This document shows positions 3,879 to 17,604 of a stretch of DNA of 17,604 nucleotides, piece after piece (position 1 is the stretch's first letter; each line of letters begins with the position of its first letter). The stretch covers positions 121,970 to 139,573 of the IMG/VR virus record IMGVR_UViG_3300021400_000219. The stretch is one strand, 5' to 3'. The DNA is from a virus. Made by a program: the position numbers and the translations under genes. The notes beneath the pieces are model-generated. The model was not told the DNA's origin and made no database searches. It saw nothing but the letters and a program-made list of their open reading frames with translations.

Positions 3879-4229
3879 CTACTTTCTTTTTTGCGTCAAT
3901 GTCAACTCAAACTTCTTTCCGTCAACCTCAAAAGCAATAACTCTTTCCTTGTTAGTGATTTCAAGGTTATCAACGGAGTTAGTCAGAAAGTTAGCAATTT
4001 CCGCAATCAAATGGCCTTTGGTTTCGTTGGGTTTTCTTTCCCTTTTGGTGAATTTGTAAGCCGTAGGCTTTCTGTCTGCCTGCCTTGCTTTCTTTTCCAC
4101 CTTTTTCTGTTCAGCCGTCAAGGGGAACGGGTCTGCGCCCTTGTCGATTTCTTTATCAGTGGCAATGATTTCCATCGCTTCCTGTTCAGAAATATCAAGG
4201 ACTTTCATCAGTCTTTCCTTTTGGTTCAT
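3879..4229 (-). CDS. Family B protein, paralog 1 of 2 (116 aa), adjacent to a family A gene
   Basis: Start set to the internal ATG (codon 27 of the track ORF), which is preceded by AAGGGGTGATACC and promoter TTGACT-17-TATAAT at 4254-4282. Paralog of 9262..9615 with a shared KK..RQADRKP motif. The TAG stop is part of the TAGGGGGC/GCCCCCTA hairpin. Confidence 0.7.
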   Translation of the reverse strand: MNQKERLMKVLDISEQEAMEIIATDKEIDKGADPFPLTAEQKKVEKKARQADRKPTAYKFTKRERKPNETKGHLIAEIANFLTNSVDNLEITNKERVIAFEVDGKKFELTLTQKRK

Positions 4230-4253
4230 GGTATCACCCCTTCCTTGATTATT

Positions 4254-4282
4254 ATTATAAGGGATAGAGGGCCAAAAGTCAA
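4254..4282 (-). promoter_or_regulatory. Promoter TTGACT-17-TATAAT for family B gene 3879..4229
   Basis: Consensus hexamers. It is flanked upstream by two GTTAG/CTAAC palindromes and CCCGGG. Confidence 0.6.
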
Positions 4283-4363
4283 GATAAATTTGTTCGTCAA
4301 TTTGCACAAAAGTGGTTAGTATAGGCTAACCGCACCCGGGAGAGTTAGTGTGCGCTAACTTCC

Positions 4364-4392
4364 AGAAAAAGGAAAAGGCCCCACATGGGGCC
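4364..4392 (-). terminator. Intrinsic terminator after family A gene 4399..4761
   Basis: GGCCCCauguGGGGCC followed by UUUUCCUUUUUCU. Confidence 0.65.
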
Positions 4393-4398
4393 TAATCC

Positions 4399-4761
4399 TC
4401 AAATGTCCATGGCCTTGAAGTAGGTGACACGCTTGTCAACATACTTGTCAACCATGCCGTTGAGATACAGGGTGCGGAGCAGACCGCTCACCCGCTGGCT
4501 GGTAGCATCTGCCAGCTCAGGCACCCCAGCGCAAATCTCAGAGATGCGGAAACCCTTGTCCGAATCATCCCGCAGGAAATCCAGAATCTTGGAGCGAATG
4601 GCATCGTTTTCCACCTGCTTGGCGGAAGGCTTGCGCTCAGCCGTGGACTTCTTGGCAAAGCCCTCGGCAATCTTTTCCAGCTTCTCCCGCAGGGCAGTTT
4701 CCTCAGCAGGGACGAAAGTCAGGGCCATCTCAATAGCAGTCTTATTAGTCAGCTTAGTCAT
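4399..4761 (-). CDS. Family A winged-helix-like DNA-binding protein, paralog 2 (120 aa)
   Basis: Start set to the ATG at 4759-4761, preceded by AGTGAGTGATACT; the identical context occurs at paralog 4. Promoter TTGACA-17-TATAAT at 4831-4859, with a second promoter TTGCAA-16-TATAAT at 4961-4988. A strong intrinsic terminator (GGCCCCatgtGGGGCC plus UUUUCCUUUUUCU) follows directly after the TGA. Confidence 0.75.
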   Translation of the reverse strand: MTKLTNKTAIEMALTFVPAEETALREKLEKIAEGFAKKSTAERKPSAKQVENDAIRSKILDFLRDDSDKGFRISEICAGVPELADATSQRVSGLLRTLYLNGMVDKYVDKRVTYFKAMDI

Positions 4762-5037
4762 AGTATCACTCACTTTCTCCGTTTTAACGAGTTCGGCTCT
4801 CAATCTTTTGTTTTCCTTTACTGTACTTGTATTATAGCACAGCTTGGGGAGTTTGTCAAGAGGTTTTGAAAACTTTTTTCGGATTATTTTACACCGACCA
4901 TTAACTCTCAAGGAGTGGCTCTCTTTCGCTCGCCGTCCCCAACCCCTCTTGACATTTATTATTATAGCAGATTTCTCCCAAATTGCAAGATGGGATTTTG
5001 CACAAATTAGATTAACTTCTTTTGGTTAAAATGTCAA

Positions 5038-6504: not shown

Positions 6505-6647
6505 AATGTATCACCTTCCTATTGGATTTGTTTCCTTCCCTTGGAACAACTATAGTATAGCACAGCAGAGGGTCTTTGTCAATACTAAATTGAAAAAAAT
6601 TTGATGGAATTTTTGGAAATGTTTTCCAGTGCCCGGGTGATGGTGAC

Positions 6648-6827
6648 TTAGTCACCATCCCTTTCTTCAAATTCACATACAGGACAAATAAAATCTCTAA
6701 AGTCTTCCTCTTCCCAATCAGATTCATAGATAGGCTCGCCGCACTCGGGACAATTATAAAATCGTTCATCCCAATTTACGAAACCGCCGAATACATTTTC
6801 AACAATCTTTGCATTCAGTTCCCACAT
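6648..6827 (-). CDS. Small zinc-ribbon-like acidic protein (59 aa, CPEC...CPVC, D/E-rich C-terminus)
   Basis: Internal ATG of track ORF 6648..6908, preceded by AAGGAGGT with 7 nt spacing. That SD site overlaps the stop of the upstream 34-aa peptide gene. The TAA stop is in the loop of the GGTGAC/GTCACC hairpin. Confidence 0.6.
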   Translation of the reverse strand: MWELNAKIVENVFGGFVNWDERFYNCPECGEPIYESDWEEEDFRDFICPVCEFEERDGD

Positions 6828-7350: not shown

Positions 7351-7439
7351 TAGAAAATTGAAAAAAATTTAATGGAATTTATTCCCATTTACCCGGGCGC
7401 GTTAGCTGCTGCTAACTCTGGAAGAAAAAGGAAGGGGGA

Positions 7440-7805
7440 TTACTCCCCCTTCACCTGGAAGCGGCTGACCCGCTTCTCCACAACCTTCTCCACGGTTCCA
7501 GCTTCTACCAGCTGGCGCAGAAGGGCGGAAGCCTGCTGGCTGGAAGAGAGTTCCAGTTCGGCGGCTACTTCCTTCGCCTGCATAGGCTCGTGGTCAGTCA
7601 GCAGTTCAACGATGCGGGCCTTGATACCCTCGTTTTCAATCTGCTTCTTGGTGGGCTTGCGCTCGCCCTTGGACTTGGAAGCGTTCCGCTTCTCATAGCT
7701 GGCCTTGCAAGCAACCAGCTTTTCCATGGCTTCCTCGTTGAAGTCAGCGGGCAGGGAAGCAATAGCCATTTCCAGAGCCTTCACATAAGTCATCTTGTTA
7801 GTCAT
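7440..7805 (-). CDS. Family A winged-helix-like DNA-binding protein, paralog 3 (121 aa)
   Basis: Start set to the ATG at 7803-7805 (GGTAGTGCATACT context). The C-terminus (...VEKRVSRFQVKGE) parallels paralog 1. The stop is in the loop of the AAGGGGGA/TCCCCCTT hairpin. Two tandem promoters at 7880-7908 and 8019-8047. Confidence 0.75.
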   Translation of the reverse strand: MTNKMTYVKALEMAIASLPADFNEEAMEKLVACKASYEKRNASKSKGERKPTKKQIENEGIKARIVELLTDHEPMQAKEVAAELELSSSQQASALLRQLVEAGTVEKVVEKRVSRFQVKGE

Positions 7806-8117
7806 AGTATGCACTACCTTTCTCTGTTTTAACGAGTTCAGCTCTCAATCTGTTTTGTTCTTTCCCTTACTGTGGCTTTATTATACCACAGGTTCAGGGG
7901 TTTGTCAAGAGTTTTTTTGAATTTCTCTTGATTTTTTTGGAGCCATTTTTTAGGTGGGCTACTTCCAACACCCGACTGTTGGCGGTTTTTTAGGTGCGCT
8001 CCCTCACCCGACATCATTATATTACCACAGGTTGCTCCATTTGTCAAGGGTTTTTTCAAAAGTTTTTTCTGGAATTTCTACCAAGATTTTCCAGCGACCC
8101 GGGCGAGTTAGCGGGGG

Positions 8118-8495: not shown

Positions 8496-8649
8496 TATTC
8501 ATTCTCCATTCATTTTTTATTGATTGGGGTTTACCTTCGTTCCCCTCAACCTTGATTATAGTATAGCAGATAGGAATGGATTTGTCAATACCTTTTTTCA
8601 AATTTTTTAATGGAATTTTTTTCCAGTTGCCCGGGCGCAGGAGTTAGCA

Positions 8650-9261: not shown

Positions 9262-9615
9262 TCACTTTCTGGGGGCTGATAATACTACTTTGTATTTAGT
9301 ATTTTCAAACGTAAAAATAAACTCTCTTTCTACGTTGGTTATTTCTAACGCTTCCCCGCCATTTTCATTTATTGCGGTTGTGAGAATATCCATTATTGCG
9401 CGTTTTGCGTTGTTTGCTTTACGTTCCTTTTTGGGGAATTTATAAGCGGATACTTTGCGGTCAGCTTGACGCATTTTTTTTGCTACTTTCTGTTGTTCAG
9501 AATTTAACTCAAAAAGTTTTGCCCCGTGGTCTATTGCATCATCATCAGCTAATACTTGTTTAGCTTCTTCCTCTGTCAAATCTAATACCTGCATTAAATG
9601 TTCGATTCTCTCCAT
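9262..9615 (-). CDS. Family B protein, paralog 2 (117 aa). Co-transcribed with the family A gene upstream
   Basis: AAAGGGGGT sits 8 nt before the ATG. There is no promoter or terminator between it and 9645..10019. The TGA stop is followed by the GCTTTAGCGC/GCGCTAAAGC hairpin. Confidence 0.75.
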   Translation of the reverse strand: MERIEHLMQVLDLTEEEAKQVLADDDAIDHGAKLFELNSEQQKVAKKMRQADRKVSAYKFPKKERKANNAKRAIMDILTTAINENGGEALEITNVEREFIFTFENTKYKVVLSAPRK

Positions 9616-9644: not shown

Positions 9645-10019
9645 TTAAACCCCCTCACCCATGGCCTTGAAATAAGTAATGCGCTTATCTACGTACTTAT
9701 CTACCATTCCGTTCAGGTAGAGCGTCCGCAGAAGTCCGCTCACCCTCTGGGAAGTCGCATCGTTCAGAGCGGGAACACCTGCGCAGATTTCAGAGATACG
9801 GAAACCTCTGTCCACATCTTCCCGCAGGAAATCCAGAATTTCCGCACGGACGGCGTCGTTCTCTGCCTGCTTTGCGCTAGGCTTGCGGGGAGCGGTGTTC
9901 TTCTTAATGGCCTGTTCCTTCATCTTCTCCAGCTTTTCCACAACATCCGTCATGTCAGCGGGAACGTAGGACAGAGCAACTTCCAGAGCCTTAACAGTAG
10001 TCATCTTATTGGTAGCCAT
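9645..10019 (-). CDS. Family A winged-helix-like DNA-binding protein, paralog 4 (124 aa)
   Basis: Start at the ATG at 10017-10019 (AGTGAGTGATACT context). It is almost identical to paralog 2 over the C-terminal 70 aa. The TAA stop is in the loop of the GGGGAGGGGG/CCCCCTCACCC hairpin. Tandem promoters at 10073-10101 and 10225-10253. Confidence 0.75.
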   Translation of the reverse strand: MATNKMTTVKALEVALSYVPADMTDVVEKLEKMKEQAIKKNTAPRKPSAKQAENDAVRAEILDFLREDVDRGFRISEICAGVPALNDATSQRVSGLLRTLYLNGMVDKYVDKRITYFKAMGEGV

Positions 10020-10072
10020 AGTATCACTCACTTTCTCTGTTTGTGGGGTTTATCAGCTCCCCTTGATGTATT

Positions 10073-10101: not shown

Positions 10102-10629
10102 AGAGTTTTTTGCAGTTTTTCTGATTTTTTTTGTGAGAACCACGAATGGAAAAAACTCTCAAAAAATTATCGTTTGAAACTCTGTCCCTAGGGCTTTGGG
10201 GCCCCTTGCCCTTTGGACAAGTATAATATAACACATTGGGGCGCGTTTGTCAATACTGATTTGAAAATTTGGGGGCATTCTCTGTTTTGCACAATTTTGA
10301 TGCAAAAATTGCGTCATTTTTGTGCATTTTGACGGCGCGCCCGGGTGAACTACCAATTTCAGGAAAAGCTGGGGTCAAGAGAGAACAAGGAAATTCATTG
10401 AAAAATTTGGTAACGATTTCCAGCGCGCGACACCGGAACCCCTGGGCCGTGTGCGTGTGCGACGGGTGCACGCAGTATTTATTTATACAAGCGGAACTAA
10501 TAGAAAAATCAATTTAAAATATTTATACATATTTATTTATTATTAAGGGTACCGGCGCAATTCTCAAATCAAAAACCTTCCAGGTCTATTTACTTCTGGA
10601 AAATGAAATAAAAATAGGGGCTGATTTAT

Positions 10630-10731
10630 TTTCAAAAATGAGATGAAAAAACGAGAGTATTTCTTTCGTAGATTCAAAGGAAACAATTTCGTTTTTCAAT
10701 CCAAAAATCATAAGGAAACACTCTCGTTTTT
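10630..10731 (-). terminator. Large hairpin terminator (12-bp stem AAAAACGAGAGU/ACUCUCGUUUUU with a roughly 60-nt loop), followed by a second terminator at 10566-10601
   Basis: Perfect 12-bp inverted repeat at 10647-10658 and 10720-10731, followed on the minus strand by UCAUCUCAUUUUUG. The second hairpin, UUCCAG-N12-CUGGAA, is followed by GGUUUUUGAUUUG. Confidence 0.5.
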
Positions 10732-10735
10732 CAAT

Positions 10736-10888
10736 TCAGAAATCTTCAATTTTTTTATTTTTTTCTTTGGCTCGATTATACTCTGAACCTTTGCCCTTTT
10801 TATTAGCTATTCTTTTGGACCTTTTCCGCAGAGTATTTAAACCATCACCATCAGTCTTTTTAATTTCTTTAACGGTTTTTTCATCCAT
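10736..10888 (-). CDS. Small lysine-rich basic protein (50 aa, MDEKTVKEIKKTDGDGLNTLRKRSKRIANKKGKGSEYNRAKEKNKKIEDF)
   Basis: Hand translation; under the track threshold. GGGAGGT sits 9 nt before the ATG, which lies just after the TAA of HAD gene 1. Its TGA stop is immediately followed by a large terminator hairpin at 10647-10731 and a second terminator. Confidence 0.45.
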   Translation of the reverse strand: MDEKTVKEIKKTDGDGLNTLRKRSKRIANKKGKGSEYNRAKEKNKKIEDF

Positions 10889-10891
10889 TTA

Positions 10892-11341
10892 TTAAAGACC
10901 TCCCAGAACTTCAAGAATATTATTTACATCATAGGCATTTCCGCCTGCATTATTCCATTCAATTCTATTTCTTTCTTCATCATCAAACAGGATGCCGATT
11001 TCATTTACTACGGTACTTTTGGGGGTGCCATAGGAAACAATTTTCACATCATCAAAATGGACGCTTGCCAGATGTTTTTTTAACCACATCTTTTTTGCTT
11101 CTGTTACAACCTTGTTGTAATCGGGGTTATCTTCCTTAGAGAGCCAAGAGACAACACCAATTTTCCATCCAAGGGCCTGTAACTTGTTCAGCTTGTGGGC
11201 CAGCGCAGAAAGCCGAATCAGGGGTTTTGCGATTTCATAGGGAAGGGGATTTCTCTCAATTAGATAGGAGAGCCAATTTTCCACGCCATACAGATCGGCA
11301 ATAGTCCCATCCATGTCGAAATAAATAGCCTTGTTCATCAT
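10892..11341 (-). CDS. HAD-superfamily hydrolase, 5'(3')-nucleotidase-like, paralog 1 (149 aa)
   Basis: Motif I (IYFDMDGTIADL) and motif IV (GILFDDEE). Start set to the ATG at 11339-11341, downstream of promoter TTGACT-17-TATTAT at 11390-11418. The 30-aa N-terminal extension in the track is translated leader. Confidence 0.7.
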   Translation of the reverse strand: MMNKAIYFDMDGTIADLYGVENWLSYLIERNPLPYEIAKPLIRLSALAHKLNKLQALGWKIGVVSWLSKEDNPDYNKVVTEAKKMWLKKHLASVHFDDVKIVSYGTPKSTVVNEIGILFDDEERNRIEWNNAGGNAYDVNNILEVLGGL

Positions 11342-11485
11342 TCTGACCAACCCTTTCTTTAAAAGGTTTTTTATCTTTTCTGTATTATTATAATACCAAA
11401 TTTTTTTATAAAAGTCAATAGGGAATCGCAAATTTTAGAAGTTTGTGCAATTTGCACAAAAGCGCCCGGGCGAGTTACCCTGTGC

Positions 11486-12046: not shown

Positions 12047-12490
12047 TTACCCGATATGGGCGGCCAGCCAAGCCAGCATCTTTTTGCTTTCTTTAGCGCA
12101 CCGGATTTTCATCCCGCCGCCGTTCTTCTGGCTTTCCCGCTCGGTCTTGCAGAACTCGGTGCAGAAGGCGGTGAACTCGTCCCGGTTCATCATATAGACC
12201 TGATAATCGGCGGTAACGTAGGCCCAGAGGTTGCTGTGGGTGCGCTCCATATAGAGGGCCCAGATTTCATCATAAGTTTCCCGGCCTTCGCACAGGGTGG
12301 CGCTCATAAGGGTGAAGGCAGAAGCCTTGACGGAGATGAGCATTTCACCAAGCTCGATATCAGAGCCTTTGTCATATGCACCGCTATCATGGGTGGTGCG
12401 GTCGATGCCCATATAGTGGCACAGATCGTGCTCACGGGCAATGCCCTTATTAGTAGCGGGGGAAACGTGGTCAATCTTGAAGGTCTTCAT
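12047..12490 (-). CDS. Hypothetical protein (147 aa)
   Basis: Start at the ATG at 12488-12490, preceded by AGGAAAGGGAG. Promoter TTGACT-17-TATACT at 12522-12550. The TAA stop is in the loop of the GGCTGGCC/GGCCAGCC hairpin. The overlapping plus ORF 11927..12523 is rejected. Confidence 0.65.
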   Translation of the reverse strand: MKTFKIDHVSPATNKGIAREHDLCHYMGIDRTTHDSGAYDKGSDIELGEMLISVKASAFTLMSATLCEGRETYDEIWALYMERTHSNLWAYVTADYQVYMMNRDEFTAFCTEFCKTERESQKNGGGMKIRCAKESKKMLAWLAAHIG

Positions 12491-12726
12491 CTGAAGCACT
12501 CCCTTTCCTTAGGATGGTTATAGTATAGCACCATTCCCCGGGATAGTCAATACAAAATCGCAAATTTCCCCTTGTGCAAATTATACAAATGTTGGAGCGG
12601 ATTTTTGGGGGCTGTTGTGCAAGTTGCACAATTAGTGTAACCTGGGTCACATTAAAAGTAACAAAAGAGTTACAATCTCTAACAATCAATTACAATCTTT
12701 TTTTTACTTTCAAAACACTTTTTTTA

Positions 12727-12911
12727 AGTTAGCAGTTAGCAAAGGGTAATGCTAGTTAGCACAAGCTAATTGTTGTTAGTTCGAACTAACTCCGGTTAGC
12801 AGGGACTAACTGGAGTTAGCCTAGGCTAACTTTAGCACACTAAAGCTGTAGCGATTTAGCGAACTAAAGTGCGCCGGACCTGGCAATTTGAACAATTAGC
12901 GGCTGCTAACT
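12727..12911. repeat. Array of eight short palindromes of the GTTAGC-N4-6-GCTAAC or TTTAG-N4-CTAAA type
   Basis: Read directly from the sequence: AGTTAGCAGTTAGCA, TTAGCacaaGCTAA, GTTAGTTCGAACTAAC, GGTTAGcagggaCTAAC, AGTTAGCCTAGGCTAACT, CTTTAGcacaCTAAAG, TTTAGcgaaCTAAA, TTAGCggctGCTAA. The same palindrome type sits at nearly every gene junction. Confidence 0.7.
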
Positions 12912-13169
12912 TTGTGCATTTTGACGAGGTTTCGGGATTCGTCAAGTTGCACAAAAATGTAACCAAATTGTAACCAAAATTTGTGCAATTTGACGGTGGC
13001 GCGAACTCGGCTGCCAACGACTGCGCTGGGCCACAGTGCACTCGTTGGCGGCCGGTTCGTCATTTTGCACAAATGCGTGCGTGCGAGGGGCCTTAACTTT
13101 ATGCATTATGACGAAAAAAAATTTTTGTGCAAAATGACGAATCAAATCCTGATTCGTCAAAATGCACAA

Positions 13170-13463
13170 AAAAAGAGGCATTGCCCGGCCTCATCGGGGG
13201 GAAGCTTGACGCCCTTCCCTGGCGGTGGTGTCCACTTTCGGGGACACGCCCGGCTCCGTTTGCTAGCCGCAGGAGCGTCGCGGCGCTGGGGTCGTTCCCT
13301 TGCCCCTTGGGGAACTTGATGGCCTCCATTTCTATCCCGCGGCCTTGGGGGCGGCCTAGCTACTTTGTGGGGAGTATCGCCCACGTTTCGCCGACGCGGC
13401 TGGGATTTTGGTGTCATCGCGCATCCCGTGCGCTCAAGAGGGACAAGTCAACCTCTTTTCTAT
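13170..13463 (-). ncRNA. Candidate GC-rich structured non-coding RNA of about 290 nt
   Basis: Promoter TTGACA-17-TATAAT at 13470-13498 on the minus strand. Intrinsic terminator GAGGC-N8-GCCUC followed by U7, at 13167-13192 in plus coordinates. GC content is far above the window average. There is no SD site and no conserved ORF. It contains a GTGTCCCC-GAAA-GTGGACAC tetraloop hairpin and a GUGGGCGAUACUCCCCAC hairpin. Confidence 0.45.
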
Positions 13464-13540
13464 GGTCTTATTATAGCACCCGCAAGGGGTTTTGTCAAGG
13501 GTTTTTTCTTTTTTTTTTTTTGTTCCCGGAGGGCCGGGGC

Positions 13541-13699
13541 TTAGTAGCCCCAGCCGATGGAGGTTACCCTCCATCCCTCCTCCCGCAGTGCGGGATAAAG
13601 GGCGGCGAAACTCGCCAACCCGTGTTCCCACACACGGGACTCACAGGCCCACAGGCCAGTGAAGAGGTTCCGATGGAACCGGATGTATTCAATTTTCAT
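13541..13699 (-). CDS. Small hypothetical protein (52 aa, W-rich)
   Basis: Internal ATG of track ORF 13541..13816, preceded by AAAGGAGGT. Promoter TTGACA-17-TATAAT at 13720-13748 with the conserved leader GATTACAGTAAAACAAAGGAGG. The TAA stop is in the loop of the GGGGCT/AGCCCC hairpin. Confidence 0.55.
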   Translation of the reverse strand: MKIEYIRFHRNLFTGLWACESRVWEHGLASFAALYPALREEGWRVTSIGWGY

Positions 13700-13759
13700 G
13701 GAAGTGACCTCCTTTGTTTTACTGTAATCATTATAGCAGACCCGCCCGGGTTTGTCAAC

Positions 13760-13925
13760 CCTTTTTTTCATTTTTTTTATTTTTTTTTGGTTCCCCATAC
13801 CCCTCCGGGGAACCACTGGCCGGCTATTTTTTACCTCCCGCCCTAGGGGGTGGCCCTTGGTACTTTGTGGGGTATCTTGCCCACGTTTCCCAGAGGGAGG
13901 GCCCGGAGGGTTTCCCCTCCTGACA
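13760..13925 (-). ncRNA. Second GC-rich non-coding segment, a partial paralog of the 13170-13463 RNA
   Basis: It shares about 30 nt with the other RNA (GAAACGUGGGC.AGAUAC.CCCACAAAGUA). It lies downstream of a weaker promoter, TAGACT-17-TATTAT, at about 13930-13960. It ends in the hairpin GGUUCCCC...GGGGAACC, followed by an A-rich run rather than a U-run. Confidence 0.3.
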
Positions 13926-14007
13926 TGATTATAATACCACAGGCCCGGCTAAAAGTCTATTGACAAATCTCACAAATCGGGATGTTCTATTTTGTGCATT
14001 TTTACTC

Positions 14008-14037
14008 TTGACAGCCGAGCCTATTTTGTGGTATAAT
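14008..14037 (+). promoter_or_regulatory. Plus-strand promoter TTGACA-18-TGgTATAAT, transcribing into GC-rich element B
   Basis: Near-consensus hexamers. The conserved upstream sequence GCATTTTTACTCTTGACA is shared with the promoter at 16916. Confidence 0.55.
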
Positions 14038-14138
14038 ATTTCTGTACTGCCTGCGCGCGCGGTCGCCGGCCGTTAGCGGGGGCTAACTGTGCCTGGGTGT
14101 GCGCCTTTATTGCAATAAAGCACTAAAGTGCACAAGGG

Positions 14139-14171
14139 CAAAAAACTACGAGGATTTTTTAATCCTCGTAG
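14139..14171 (-). terminator. Intrinsic terminator overlapping the stop codon of 14159..14290
   Basis: CUACGAGGAU-UAA-AAAAUCCUCGUAG followed by UUUUUUG. The stop codon is in the loop. Confidence 0.65.
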
Positions 14172-14290
14172 TCAATGGCGATGACCTTCCAGCCCTTGGG
14201 CGGTTCGTAGTTTTCCGGCAGGCCCTTCCAGAGAATCAATTCAGTATCGGCCCACTCTCCATCAATCTTTCTGATTTCAATGCTCCACAT
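14159..14290 (-). CDS. Small hypothetical protein (43 aa)
   Basis: Internal ATG of track ORF 14159..14383. Promoter TTGACA-17-TATAAT at 14343-14371 and a leader of the AAUCAGAAAGAGGGAAGGAAAACC type. The TAA stop is in the loop of terminator ACGAGGAU/AUCCUCGU, followed by UUUUUUG. Confidence 0.5.
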   Translation of the reverse strand: MWSIEIRKIDGEWADTELILWKGLPENYEPPKGWKVIAIDYED

Positions 14291-15022: not shown

Positions 15023-15487
15023 TTACTTCCCTCTCGCCCATGTCAGAACGTCCATAATCATTTCAGGATTGAAGGCCCAACCTTCCATTTCTTCCCACTC
15101 AATCACATTGTTTTCTTCATCGTCAAACAGAATCCCATTTTTCACGGTGGGCACTGTGCTTTTGGGCGTCCCATAGGGAACAATGTTGATTTCATCAAAG
15201 TGAACGCTTGCAAGGTGTTTCTTGAGCCAATTCTTTTTGGCTTCAATAACCTTTTCGTCAAATTCCTTGTTGCTATTCTTAGCTAACCAACTAACTACCC
15301 CGATTGTCCATCCCTTTTTCTGAAGGTTATTCAACCGACGGGCAAGGGCGTTCATGTTTACCAGAGGCTTAGCAACTTCATAGGGGAAGGGATTGTTTTC
15401 CAGTAGATAACCCAGCCAGTTTTCTACGCCGTAGAAGTTGGCGATTGTTCCATCCATGTCAAAGTAGATTGCCCGATTGATTTTCAT
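15023..15487 (-). CDS. HAD-superfamily hydrolase, 5'(3')-nucleotidase-like, paralog 2 (154 aa)
   Basis: IYFDMDGTIANF and GILFDDEE motifs. AAAAGGAG sits 9 nt before the ATG. Promoter TTGACA-16-TATACT at 15519-15546. The TAA stop is in the loop of the GAGGGAA/TTCCCTC hairpin. Confidence 0.75.
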   Translation of the reverse strand: MKINRAIYFDMDGTIANFYGVENWLGYLLENNPFPYEVAKPLVNMNALARRLNNLQKKGWTIGVVSWLAKNSNKEFDEKVIEAKKNWLKKHLASVHFDEINIVPYGTPKSTVPTVKNGILFDDEENNVIEWEEMEGWAFNPEMIMDVLTWARGK

Positions 15488-15590: not shown

Positions 15591-15619
15591 TTGACAAATT
15601 GAAAAAACTGTGATACAAT
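15591..15619 (+). promoter_or_regulatory. Plus-strand promoter TTGACA-17-TGtGATACAAT, whose transcript starts AAAGGGGGAAUUA followed by U19
   Basis: It sits back-to-back with the minus promoter of HAD gene 2 (15519-15546). The two -35 regions form an inverted repeat, CCTCTTGACAAATT. Confidence 0.55.
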
Positions 15620-15632
15620 AAAGGGGGAATTA

Positions 15633-15651
15633 TTTTTTTTTTTTTTTTTTT
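15633..15651 (+). repeat. Homopolymeric T19 tract at +15 of a plus-strand transcript
   Basis: Counted directly. A second tract, T26, lies at 17475-17500 in the same context. There are also T13 at 13511-13523 and T-runs at 13766-13790. Confidence 0.8.
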
Positions 15652-15705
15652 GGTTAGCTTAGGCTAACTTAGGTTAGTATGTGCTAACTACCCGGGCGCA
15701 AGAAA

Positions 15706-16915: not shown

Positions 16916-16944
16916 TTGACATTCGCTGTAAATTGTGGTAAAAT
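16916..16944 (+). promoter_or_regulatory. Plus-strand promoter TTGACA-17-TGgTAAAAT, transcribing into GC-rich element C
   Basis: Hexamers and spacing. An upstream TTGCACAA box lies at about 16877-16884. Confidence 0.55.
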
Positions 16945-17046
16945 AAAATGGGGAGCTGTTGTTCGCGCGCGCCGAAGGCCGTTAGCGGCCGCTAACCGGG
17001 TGTGCGTGTGCGCACCTTTATAGCTTTAATGGGTTAAAGTAACCGG

Positions 17047-17294: not shown

Positions 17295-17433
17295 TGTTTT
17301 ATTTCCTTTCTGGTTTGTTGGGTTTTCCTTCCCTCTTTCTGATTATAGTATAGCATAAATTCCCGGAAAGTCAAGAGTTTTTTACAGAAAAGTTGTACAA
17401 ATGCCGCACACATTTTTTGTACAGTTTGTCTAT

Positions 17434-17462
17434 TGACTTTTTTCTCTTGGATGTGATACAAT
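17434..17462 (+). promoter_or_regulatory. Plus-strand promoter TTGACT-17-TGtGATACAAT, whose transcript starts GAAGGGGGAUUC followed by U26
   Basis: Paralogous to the promoter at 15591. A TTGTACAA palindrome box lies between it and the divergent minus promoter at 17347-17374. Confidence 0.55.
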
Positions 17463-17604
17463 GAAGGGGGATTCTTTTTTTTTTTTTTTTTTTTTTTTTA
17501 AAGGGTTGCGCAAACCAACCCTCCGGGGAAAAGAGAAAAGGATTTTTCACCCTTTTTCTCCATCCCCATTACGTTTTAAAAGTTTTTGCCACTTTACATA
17601 ATAC

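Follow-up and report, generated by a model that had tools for sequence, protein, structure and literature searches.

The window analysed here, a stretch of 17,604 nt from IMG/VR virus record IMGVR_UViG_3300021400_000219 (positions 121,970 to 139,573), was found to be a portion of the early region of a large uncultured gut phage. Its genes, nearly all of them short and on the minus strand, each have a consensus promoter of their own (TTGACA-17-TGnTATAAT), and 87 promoter-like sites were counted where 32 were expected. The subject of this analysis is a region free of open reading frames (ORFs) that is bounded on the left by the promoter of a gene for a 147-aa protein and on the right by the terminator of a GC-rich untranslated unit of ~290 nt. 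At the core of this region lies an array of short palindromes in helical phase. The source contig is a scaffold of 174,221 bp, in which the region lies ~39-40 kb from one end, and its layout recurs in a second scaffold, of 171 kb.

The locus and the elements of the ORF-free region

At the protein level, the nearest named relatives were Enterococcus phage EF1 and Phass-1, a gut phage of the "code 15 clade" with Clostridia as predicted host. The phage analysed here resembles SPbeta in some genes, as shown by a YonG_N match, and a giant tape-measure protein has been reported for Phass-1. No DNA-level match to the window was found among the annotated phages of INPHARED, and the array used as a query against annotated phage records returned one unannotated faecal contig only. 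Relatives of the neighbouring gene were not found in IMG/VR.

The first-pass annotation of this DNA had listed seven kinds of palindromes and repeats in the region. All of them were present, within ~2 bases of where they had been placed and each far above chance. They comprise the perfect 17-bp palindrome TTGTGCAA-g-TTGCACAA (at 12615-12631, previously given as 12613-12629); GTAAC/GTTAC and (G/A)TTACAATC repeats (12637-12697); the array of eight palindromes (12728-12910); TTGACGA-N11-TCGTCAA (12921-12945); two copies of GTAACCAAA, starting at 12959 and 12970; a GC-rich dyad with arms that are 86% complementary; and GACGAATCA-aatcc-TGATTCGTC (13136-13158), together with composite boxes, of which seven copies of the 18-nt TTTGTGCAnnnTGACGAA alternate in orientation from 12911 to 13170.

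Counted over the whole window, GTTAG-N6-CTAAC with at most one mismatch occurred 19 times against 0.38 expected. The composite box, as the 18-nt TTTGTGCAnnnTGACG(AA), occurred 10 times against 0.06 expected, with 7 of the 10 in the region, and TGTWAH-N5-TGTWAH occurred 6 times against 0.10 expected, with 2 in the region. The four large dyads, folded as single strands, gave z scores of -7.1, -4.5, -8.3 and -4.3 relative to shuffles. The first of these values belongs to the long dyad at 12979-13074, with a folding energy of -37 kcal/mol as single-stranded DNA. The composite boxes at 13124-13140 and 13154-13170 form a palindrome with 23-nt arms, and the stretch from 12660 to 12749 has a GC content of 23 to 25%.

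The absence of coding sequence was borne out as well. Only ORFs of 52 to 112 aa were present, none with the promoter and ribosome-binding-site pattern and none with a Pfam or PHROG match. Coding through an alternative code, a candidate prompted by the code-15 phage Phass-1, was rejected, as no long ORF appeared with TAG, TGA or TAA read as sense. The block replacements seen in strain variants also ignore reading frames. No tRNA or tmRNA was found, no Rfam family reached its gathering score in the window, and a relaxed search of 12400-14200 returned chance-level matches (E of 0.19 or worse).

Array unit, promoter cassettes and strain variants

Within the array, GTTAGC and GCTAAC hexamers alternate every 10 bp, resulting in 16-bp palindromes every 20 bp. 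The GTTAG-N6-CTAAC units start at 12735, 12755, 12775, 12795 and 12815 in strict 20-bp register, with an extra half-site at 12728 and a central TTCGAA at 12781-12786. The units at 12755, 12775, 12795, 12815 and, farther right, 12895 have 0 or 1 mismatch to GTTAG-N6-CTAAC.

A two-unit pattern was scanned over one genome per GTDB species. At least 120 stretches were found among the matches listed, compared with an estimated chance expectation of ~1 for 20 fixed bases in 596 Gb, and the phyla matched include Firmicutes, Melainabacteria, Spirochaetes, Actinobacteria and Proteobacteria. Nearly all of the bacterial matches listed have exactly two units, 20 bp apart, and many have a TTGACA -35 element upstream and a start codon just downstream. 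The genes adjacent to the 120 matches listed were feoA (39), feoB (31), two-domain DtxR-family regulators (23) and iron ABC binding proteins (10). In 63 of these 120, a feoA, feoB, Fe-binding protein or DtxR-family gene lay within 3 kb, and in 34 of the matches listed the feoA start lay within 250 nt. Pfam confirmed FeoA (1e-20), FeoB_N (1e-53) and Fe_dep_repress with Fe_dep_repr_C at the bacterial loci. A profile of the adjacent regulators, compared with known structures, matched MntR (1e-26), DtxR (1e-18) and IdeR, over a range of 1e-26 to 1e-15.

In the IdeR-DNA structure, one dimer touches CCTAA repeats 1 and 3 of the iron box, and TTAGGNNNNCCTAA was proposed as the single-dimer consensus (PMC8464063). 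TTAGGNNNNCCTAA is TTAG-N6-CTAA, which is the geometry of the array unit; the position weight matrix of the unit reads a-GTTAG-T-Y-nn-R-A-CTAAC-t. Over 353 units, no covariation between half-sites was detected (stem positions all at z -1.1 to +0.8), and sense-strand mismatches showed no G.U excess (16 G.U versus 18 A.C). Since compensatory changes are absent and G.U is not above A.C, it appeared that a protein reads double-stranded half-sites rather than RNA stems, and RNA stems as the function of the array were rejected on the same two grounds. From these comparisons, the array unit was concluded to be an operator of the DtxR/IdeR/MntR family, which is paired in bacteria and amplified in these phages.

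With regard to conservation of the array in related genomes, one of the checks suggested earlier, the unit and period recur in 53 IMG/VR stretches, with up to 28-29 units and a 20-bp interval in 286 of ~400 cases, and the array is truncated or replaced in near-identical strains. Where long arrays occurred in "genome" bins, the contigs share phage proteins with the window. Multi-motif hubs comparable to the region were found in the distant relatives L059, L062 and L156, and in L059 three of the region's element types lie side by side in an ORF-free stretch of 2.7 kb. ORF-free units consisting of a promoter, a hairpin, an array and a terminator were found in L146, L148 and L059. The one in L146 (1480-2215) contains a TTGTGCA box, a consensus promoter, a GC hairpin, 29 units at exactly 20 bp and an intrinsic terminator, and its array has a 40-bp super-period that decays toward the 3' end. 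One relative carries up to 13 separate arrays within 10 kb.

Operators of other host regulators were also scored, in 65 related multi-promoter phage loci totalling 682 kb, with palindromes counted on both strands and consensus strings checked in PMC9600882, PMC1409795, PMC2248561 and PMC4168254 (the last for WalR). DtxR-type sites numbered 464 against 1.2 expected, LexA sites (CGAAC-N4-GTTCG) 46 against 0.8, clostridial Rex sites (TTGTKAA-N4-TTMACAA) 30 against 0, CtsR sites 8 against 0 and WalR sites 61 against 10.6. Rex boxes lie ~20 nt upstream of the -35, a slot equal to that of the class elements in the window described below. LexA and Rex boxes were also seen in tandem runs (L139 192-250, L149 9718-9935, L134 9136 and L145 13576). 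In L156, the ORF-free stretch 3950-4960 contains a promoter, ~35 DtxR-type units, three exact CtsR operators AGTCAAAGAAAGTCAAA and four perfect DnaA boxes TGTGGATAA, the last immediately before the following promoter. LexA, Rex and CtsR sites are absent from the window itself. The window has six exact matches to the WalR/VicR consensus TGTWAH-N5-TGTWAH (PMC4168254), four abutting a -35 and two in the region, one of which is 12658-12674.

Alignment of all promoters in the window, in the minus-strand sense, gave a stereotyped intergenic cassette in which a variable hairpin, placed where the upstream gene ends, is followed by a CGCCCGGGCG box, a class element, an A-rich stretch and the -35/-10 elements. 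The CGCCCGGGCG box was found 22 times in the window against 0.38 expected (e.g., 1663-1672, 7392-7399, 8630-8637 and 11463-11472), always just 3' of the gene-end hairpin and 5' of the class element of the next promoter, and it is frequent in L044 too. The CCCGGGCG junction box, the mark of ordinary cassettes, is absent from the region. By class element the promoters fall into four kinds, the fourth having none. cTGGAAAAnnnTTCCA stands at 8 promoters; TGTAAC-N5-TGTAAC abuts the -35 at four (2261, 2657, 7002 and 14951), with the 17-mer TGTAACCAAATTGTAAC of the region repeated at those of 7002 and 2261; and TTGTGCAA boxes stand at 6, several with a weak -35 hexamer. On related contigs, the TTGTGCAA box lay 0-19 nt upstream of the -35 in 68 of 219 cases, and a partner in inverse orientation was often present 30-49 nt upstream.

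GTTAG-N6-CTAAC units were found at 13 other positions in the window, so the array unit is not a unique site. Units start 33-36 nt past the -10 at three plus-strand promoters (14008, 15591 and 16916), and the first array unit in the region starts 38 nt past the -10 of a weak plus-strand promoter. Other units lie 32-64 nt upstream of the -35 at six minus-strand promoters, beside a CCCGGG box. With sites 33-38 nt past the -10 or 32-64 nt before the -35, no overlap of an operator with a promoter core was found in the window. The region gathers elements that elsewhere are spread one per promoter, and the TTGTGCAA boxes and TGTAAC repeats between its two promoters are ordinary class elements that probably set promoter activity for the 147-aa gene and the antisense transcript. 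The first-pass annotation had put the region forward as the best candidate for the cis-acting control centre of the element, which was not supported: all of the motif classes also stand, at fixed positions, beside further early promoters of the window. Its more general suggestion of an operator region named the right category, as the concentration of dyad and iterated sites of protein-binding type is real, but the region is neither unique nor central.

Plus-strand antisense promoters were also observed inside the minus-strand gene array at 14008-14087, 15591-15688, 16916-16996 and 17433-17499. Three of the four have one or two DtxR-type units at +33 to +36, and two are followed by T19 or T25 runs.

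Strain variation was examined in ten contigs from other samples that encode an identical 147-aa protein. The -10 element, the 5' untranslated region and the 147-aa gene are 100% identical in these variants. Three of the contigs keep the whole region at 98.5-100% identity, and in the remaining variants that reach it, a core of ~190 bp (~12795-12990) is 95-99% identical. The array is reduced to two units in L181, L182 and L187; these three and L185 carry a consensus antisense promoter, TTGACT-17-TATAAT, with a T15 run, reading into the array. In L183, the array is replaced by more than 10 GTAAC/GTTAC repeats. For the GC-rich dyad, two alleles of unrelated sequence were seen, each a hairpin, with the second, also GC-rich, in L181-L183, and the 290-nt GC-rich unit is missing in three variants. 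The blocks of the region are therefore exchangeable, their motifs being kept and their arrangement not, and such exchange is not readily compatible with a unique origin or centromere. The weak site at 12669-12696 takes the place of the strong promoter of the variants, and its 38-nt spacing to the array is like the 33-36 nt seen elsewhere; both observations support a reading with divergent promoters.

Candidate binders and competing explanations

No DtxR homologue was found in the related phage loci examined. Only 7 IMG/VR contigs encode a DtxR homologue and none of them is an array contig, and a phage-encoded DtxR was rejected as the binder on these two counts. With no DtxR gene on the array phages examined, a host repressor is the simplest candidate, and the binder of the array is probably host-encoded, as judged from gene content. 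The window does encode four winged-helix paralogues, all on the minus strand and here termed family A (9645-10031, 4399-4911, 7440-7814 and 1714-2082), and the family is present in 34 related loci. Two of the four copies are followed by a conserved basic protein of ~120 aa, family B (9262-9615 after 9645-10031, and 3879-4307 after 4399-4911). The family A profile gave weak matches to Hop2, MJ223, BlaI/MecI and MarR/TrmB; family A as a divergent DtxR was rejected, the similarity being of the generic winged-helix kind only (hhalign probability of 53%).

Family A proteins are candidate binders of the phage-specific motifs. One such motif is the palindrome (C)TTTAGC-NN-GCTAAAG, with 26 copies in phage loci (24 of them outside the window) and 0 in 877 kb of bacterial loci; the commonest TTTAG-N4-CTAAA form in relatives is TTTAGCGCGCTAAA. 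The density of TTGTGCAA was somewhat higher where family A genes occur (P = 0.008), which is weak evidence for a phage-encoded TTGTGCAA binder. The palindrome TTGTGCAA-N-TTGCACAA was rejected as a host operator, since no common neighbour gene family was found among the 120 metagenome matches listed, which were mostly chance matches, terminator-like hairpins or phages of this group.

On balance, it is probable that the region is an untranslated control region between divergent promoters, made of exchangeable operator blocks, with a core that binds a host DtxR-family repressor. One promoter would read the minus strand for the 147-aa gene and the other the plus strand, in antisense. The core, 12728-12830 and 12895-12910, would consist of helically phased operators for a metal-dependent host repressor of the DtxR/IdeR/MntR family, the array beginning ~30-40 nt past the plus-strand promoter. 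Metal-loaded repressor would coat ~100 bp and block the plus-strand non-coding transcript, at elongation or at initiation. When not blocked, this transcript would cross the composite dyads toward the converging GC-rich unit, with the long GC-rich dyad followed by TCATTTTG perhaps serving as its terminator. The array and at least 13 further sites in the window might also sequester the repressor on every phage genome copy, away from the host feoAB operators, and the other blocks (TTGTGCAA, TGTAAC, TTTAG-N4-CTAAA and the composites) presumably bind further regulators, either family A proteins or host factors. Both repressor binding and its consequences, whether gating or titration, are inferred here from sequence. 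With regard to a phage immunity region, which had been suggested earlier, divergent promoters are present; the 147-aa protein has no family or structure match and no helix-turn-helix, and the other flank is untranslated.

Several points weigh against control by a host repressor. The plus-strand promoter is weak in this strain, with 9 of 12 consensus positions. In most cases the phage sites stand clear of promoter cores, whereas chromosomal operators overlap or directly follow the -10; classical steric repression is consequently not obvious, and a roadblock or a decoy is favoured over occlusion. The binder may instead be a phage protein of convergent specificity, encoded beyond the fragments examined. 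The host lineage is only hinted at (Clostridia, perhaps Oscillospirales), the Fe or Mn specificity of the repressor is inferred solely from the feoAB targets, and four of the five motif classes in the region are without an identified binder. In addition, the promoter-hairpin-array-terminator units of L146 and L148 indicate that an RNA product exists there, which could be what matters.

The placement of the sites outside promoter cores and the terminator-bounded arrays of up to 29 units make titration a serious possibility. As a tentative proposal, less probable than not, the DtxR-family operators here and the LexA, Rex, CtsR and DnaA sites in relatives would act as decoys: tens of them on a replicating genome would titrate the repressors and so switch on host regulons. 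The stretch 12728-12910 would then be an iron-regulator sponge, and the region a modular "decoy hub" with blocks shuffled between strains. The data do not separate titration from iron-gated antisense control. Two other leads, an analogy with the T5 injection-stop signal and a Spo0A reading of TGACGAA, one of them a 6-base match only, had too little support to be adopted.

The first-pass annotation had listed a replication origin and a parS-like centromere among its suggestions, and the features tested gave no support to either. As an origin, which we consider very unlikely, the phased dyads would be initiator iterons and the AT-rich stretch 12640-12727 an unwinding element, with transcription into the array activating or priming initiation, as at the lambda ori or the phage c2 ori. 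Five 20-bp-phased repeats do adjoin an AT-rich stretch (23-30% GC), promoters read into arrays in strain variants and relatives, and in L156 four perfect DnaA boxes stand beside the array. However, no DnaA box lies between 11088 and the window end or within 1.4 kb of the region, genes nearby match no Rep, DnaD or helicase loader, and the cumulative GC-skew minimum, computed as had been suggested, lies ~8 kb away together with the coding-strand switch. Units at 13 other window sites, the 13 arrays within 10 kb of one relative, and the deletion of most of the array or its replacement in near-identical strains also argue against an origin, and the motif already has an explanation as a putative host repressor operator. 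The skew minimum, 23-28% GC and the coding-strand switch were observed together at ~21,000-21,500 when the window was extended with L173, ~3.5 kb past its right end; judged by composition, an origin would be better sought there than in the region. Also improbable is a centromere or genome-organising array on whose phased repeats a phage protein (ParR-, omega- or KorB-like, or family A) polymerises, a protein that would have to share the TTAG half-site preference. Tandem 20-bp repeats that contain dyads resemble type II parC sites, the dispersed copies near many promoters resemble KorB/OB or the SPBRE/MrpR system of SPbeta, four family A paralogues are present in the window, and the TTTAGCGCGCTAAA-type palindrome is phage-specific. 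Against this, no ParA, ParM, TubZ, ParB or ribbon-helix-helix adaptor was found among the ten window proteins and the Pfam-matched genes in the 10 kb to the right, and near-identical strains can do without the array. The exact unit, with its 20-bp pairing, also occurs at feoAB and DtxR genes in many phyla, which makes a host binder the simpler reading.

It is also quite improbable that the region is a structured non-coding RNA gene, in which plus-strand GUUAGC/GCUAAC hairpins and composite hairpins would form the product, such as a protein sponge or antisense regulator. The ORF-free units of L146, L148 and L059 point in that direction, as does the folding of the region's dyads, far better than that of shuffles. 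The GC-rich dyad, moreover, was swapped for a different hairpin, so that structure was kept and sequence was not. The array units tell against it, with 353 of them free of compensatory change and of sense-strand G.U bias, their stems conserved in sequence and their loops variable; many arrays sit between a terminator and the next promoter, and no Rfam family matched. A non-functional pile-up, a recombination scar of repeated intergenic cassettes with no role of its own, is likewise very unlikely. It would fit a phage built of stereotyped cassettes (hairpin, CCCGGGCG box, class element and promoter) and a region that is a recombination mosaic among strains, but the 20-bp register holds strictly across 100 bp in the region and 600 bp in relatives, and the 190-bp core is conserved in the variants reaching it. 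The lack of the CCCGGGCG box of ordinary cassette junctions and the multi-motif hubs in distant L059, L062 and L156 are also contrary to a scar.

Among the closest known systems is the DtxR/IdeR iron box, which has TTAG-N6-CTAA per dimer (PMC8464063) and whose bacterial two-unit form was found at iron-uptake promoters beside DtxR-family genes. The classical 19-bp iron box differs in holding two overlapping dimers, 5 bp apart and on opposite DNA faces, whereas the dimers on the phage array would be 20 bp apart on one face; the phages also extend the box to 5-29 tandem units and to tens of sites per genome, mostly outside promoter cores. The tox gene is phage-borne, in corynephage beta, and so provides a precedent for a phage-borne gene under host DtxR control. 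Diphtheria toxin is controlled by DtxR (PMC524172). Phage phi29, a virulent phage of Firmicutes, has multiple sites for host Spo0A (0A boxes) and Spo0J (parS) near early promoters, which couple its development to host physiology (PMC2731898). It resembles the region in having phage-borne consensus sites for global DNA-binding proteins of the host near early promoters. It differs in the host factors involved and in having 5-6 single sites without phased arrays, and its Spo0A boxes overlap promoters or UP elements and were shown to repress. In SPbeta, the operator SPBRE is dispersed over about ten intergenic or promoter regions and is bound by MrpR (PMC10516654). This is likewise a short, conserved, dispersed operator in a large siphophage of Firmicutes, but the binder there is a phage-encoded repressor of recombinase fold and the operator is not arrayed; an MrpR-like gene was not seen here.

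The lambda ori, P1 incC/incA and the parC of R1 or pSK41 have ~20-bp tandem repeats in helical phase, some with internal dyads, beside AT-rich DNA. The region shares this arrangement with such iteron origins and type II centromeres but lacks linked initiator or partition genes and a skew signal, and its site is non-unique and dispensable in close strains. The KorB operator OB of IncP plasmids, TTTAGCSGCTAAA, appears to resemble the TTTAGC/GCTAAA half-sites of 12831-12868 and their dispersed layout. Its central spacing differs from TTTAG-N4-CTAAA here and from TTTAGCGCGCTAAA in relatives, and no ParB-family gene was found in the fragments examined.

No description of phased host-operator arrays of this kind was found in the literature searched or in records of annotated phages. 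The differences from known phages that carry host sites are the phased arrays, how many sites there are, and their placement outside promoter cores. Host-repressor control of phage genes is known from single cases, such as tox with DtxR and phi29 with Spo0A, whereas arrays of 5-29 putative metal-sensor operators were seen in dozens of contigs of uncultured gut and rumen phages, in some cases together with LexA, Rex and CtsR sites. A host regulator is probably read or sequestered by the phage at this region. Should the host repressor bind, the phage would have a protein-free route to sense host iron status or to reprogram regulons by titration. If the sites are decoys, the iron-uptake, SOS, redox/fermentation and Clp/chaperone regulons would be switched on without an anti-repressor protein. 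The long "ORF-free repeat regions" in this large group of phages, otherwise liable to be taken for origins, would also gain a concrete reading for annotators.

Coordinates of the region and neighbouring features

Table 1. Features of the ORF-free region and its boundaries, from left to right (positions in the window)
Feature	Position	Strand	Remark
Promoter of the 147-aa gene, TTGACT-17-TGcTATACT	12522..12550	-	Left boundary of the region
Promoter-proximal TTGTGCAA box	12572..12579		21 nt upstream of the -35 of the 147-aa gene promoter, opposite orientation
Perfect 17-bp palindrome TTGTGCAAgTTGCACAA	12615..12631		Second copy at 11443-11459, upstream of another promoter
AT-rich TGTAAC/TGTTAC-type hexamers, 10-11 bp apart	12637..12700	-	
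Weak promoter-like GTTACA-16-TACAAT, then T9 and T7 runs	12669..12696	+	
Phased array of putative DtxR/IdeR-type single-dimer sites	12728..12830		Five 16-bp units and one half-site
Two TTTAG-N4-CTAAA palindromes, TTTAGCACACTAAA and TTTAGCGAACTAAA	12831-12844 and 12855-12868		
Isolated DtxR-type unit ATTAGCGGCTGCTAAC	12895..12910		
Convergent composite-box pair, TTTGTGCATTTTGACGA and its inverse	12911..12955		11 nt enclosed
TGTAACCAAATTGTAAC, exact WalR-consensus direct repeat	12958..12974	+	
Long dyad	12979..13074		Composite boxes 12980-12995 and 13057-13073 around a GC-rich palindrome (13008-13028/13034-13054)
Composite boxes	13098..13170		13098-13114 (degenerate), 13124-13140 and 13154-13170
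Weak intrinsic terminator, 5-bp stem and T7	13175..13192	-	Ends the GC-rich unit 13175-13460; right boundary
Consensus promoter driving the GC-rich unit 13175-13460	13470-13498	-	

Two GC-rich untranslated units were observed on the minus strand, at 13175-13460 and ~13830-13960, each behind its own promoter. They have in common a core of ~55 nt, GGAAACGTGGGC..CCCCACAAAGTA..GGGCC.CCCCC. Neither unit had an Rfam match, and the ~290-nt unit folded no better than shuffles (z = -0.3).

Among the neighbouring genes, paralogues resembling HAD-type 5'-deoxynucleotidases (NT5C/phrog_2643) were found at 10892-11431 and 15023-15487, both on the minus strand, and genes of this kind make up the commonest gene family over the related loci. 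The low-GC stretch 10250-10890 has no convincing gene. A 35-bp tandem repeat of 1.9 copies was detected at 10677-10744, and TTGTGCA boxes were located at 10288 and 10321, upstream of the promoter at 10253. In Phass-1 (L172), the unannotated stretch 6640-6760 contains a tRNA-like 3' end, GGTTCGACTCCCGTACACTCCACCA; clustered TTGTGCAA boxes and a CGCTAAAG element follow directly downstream.

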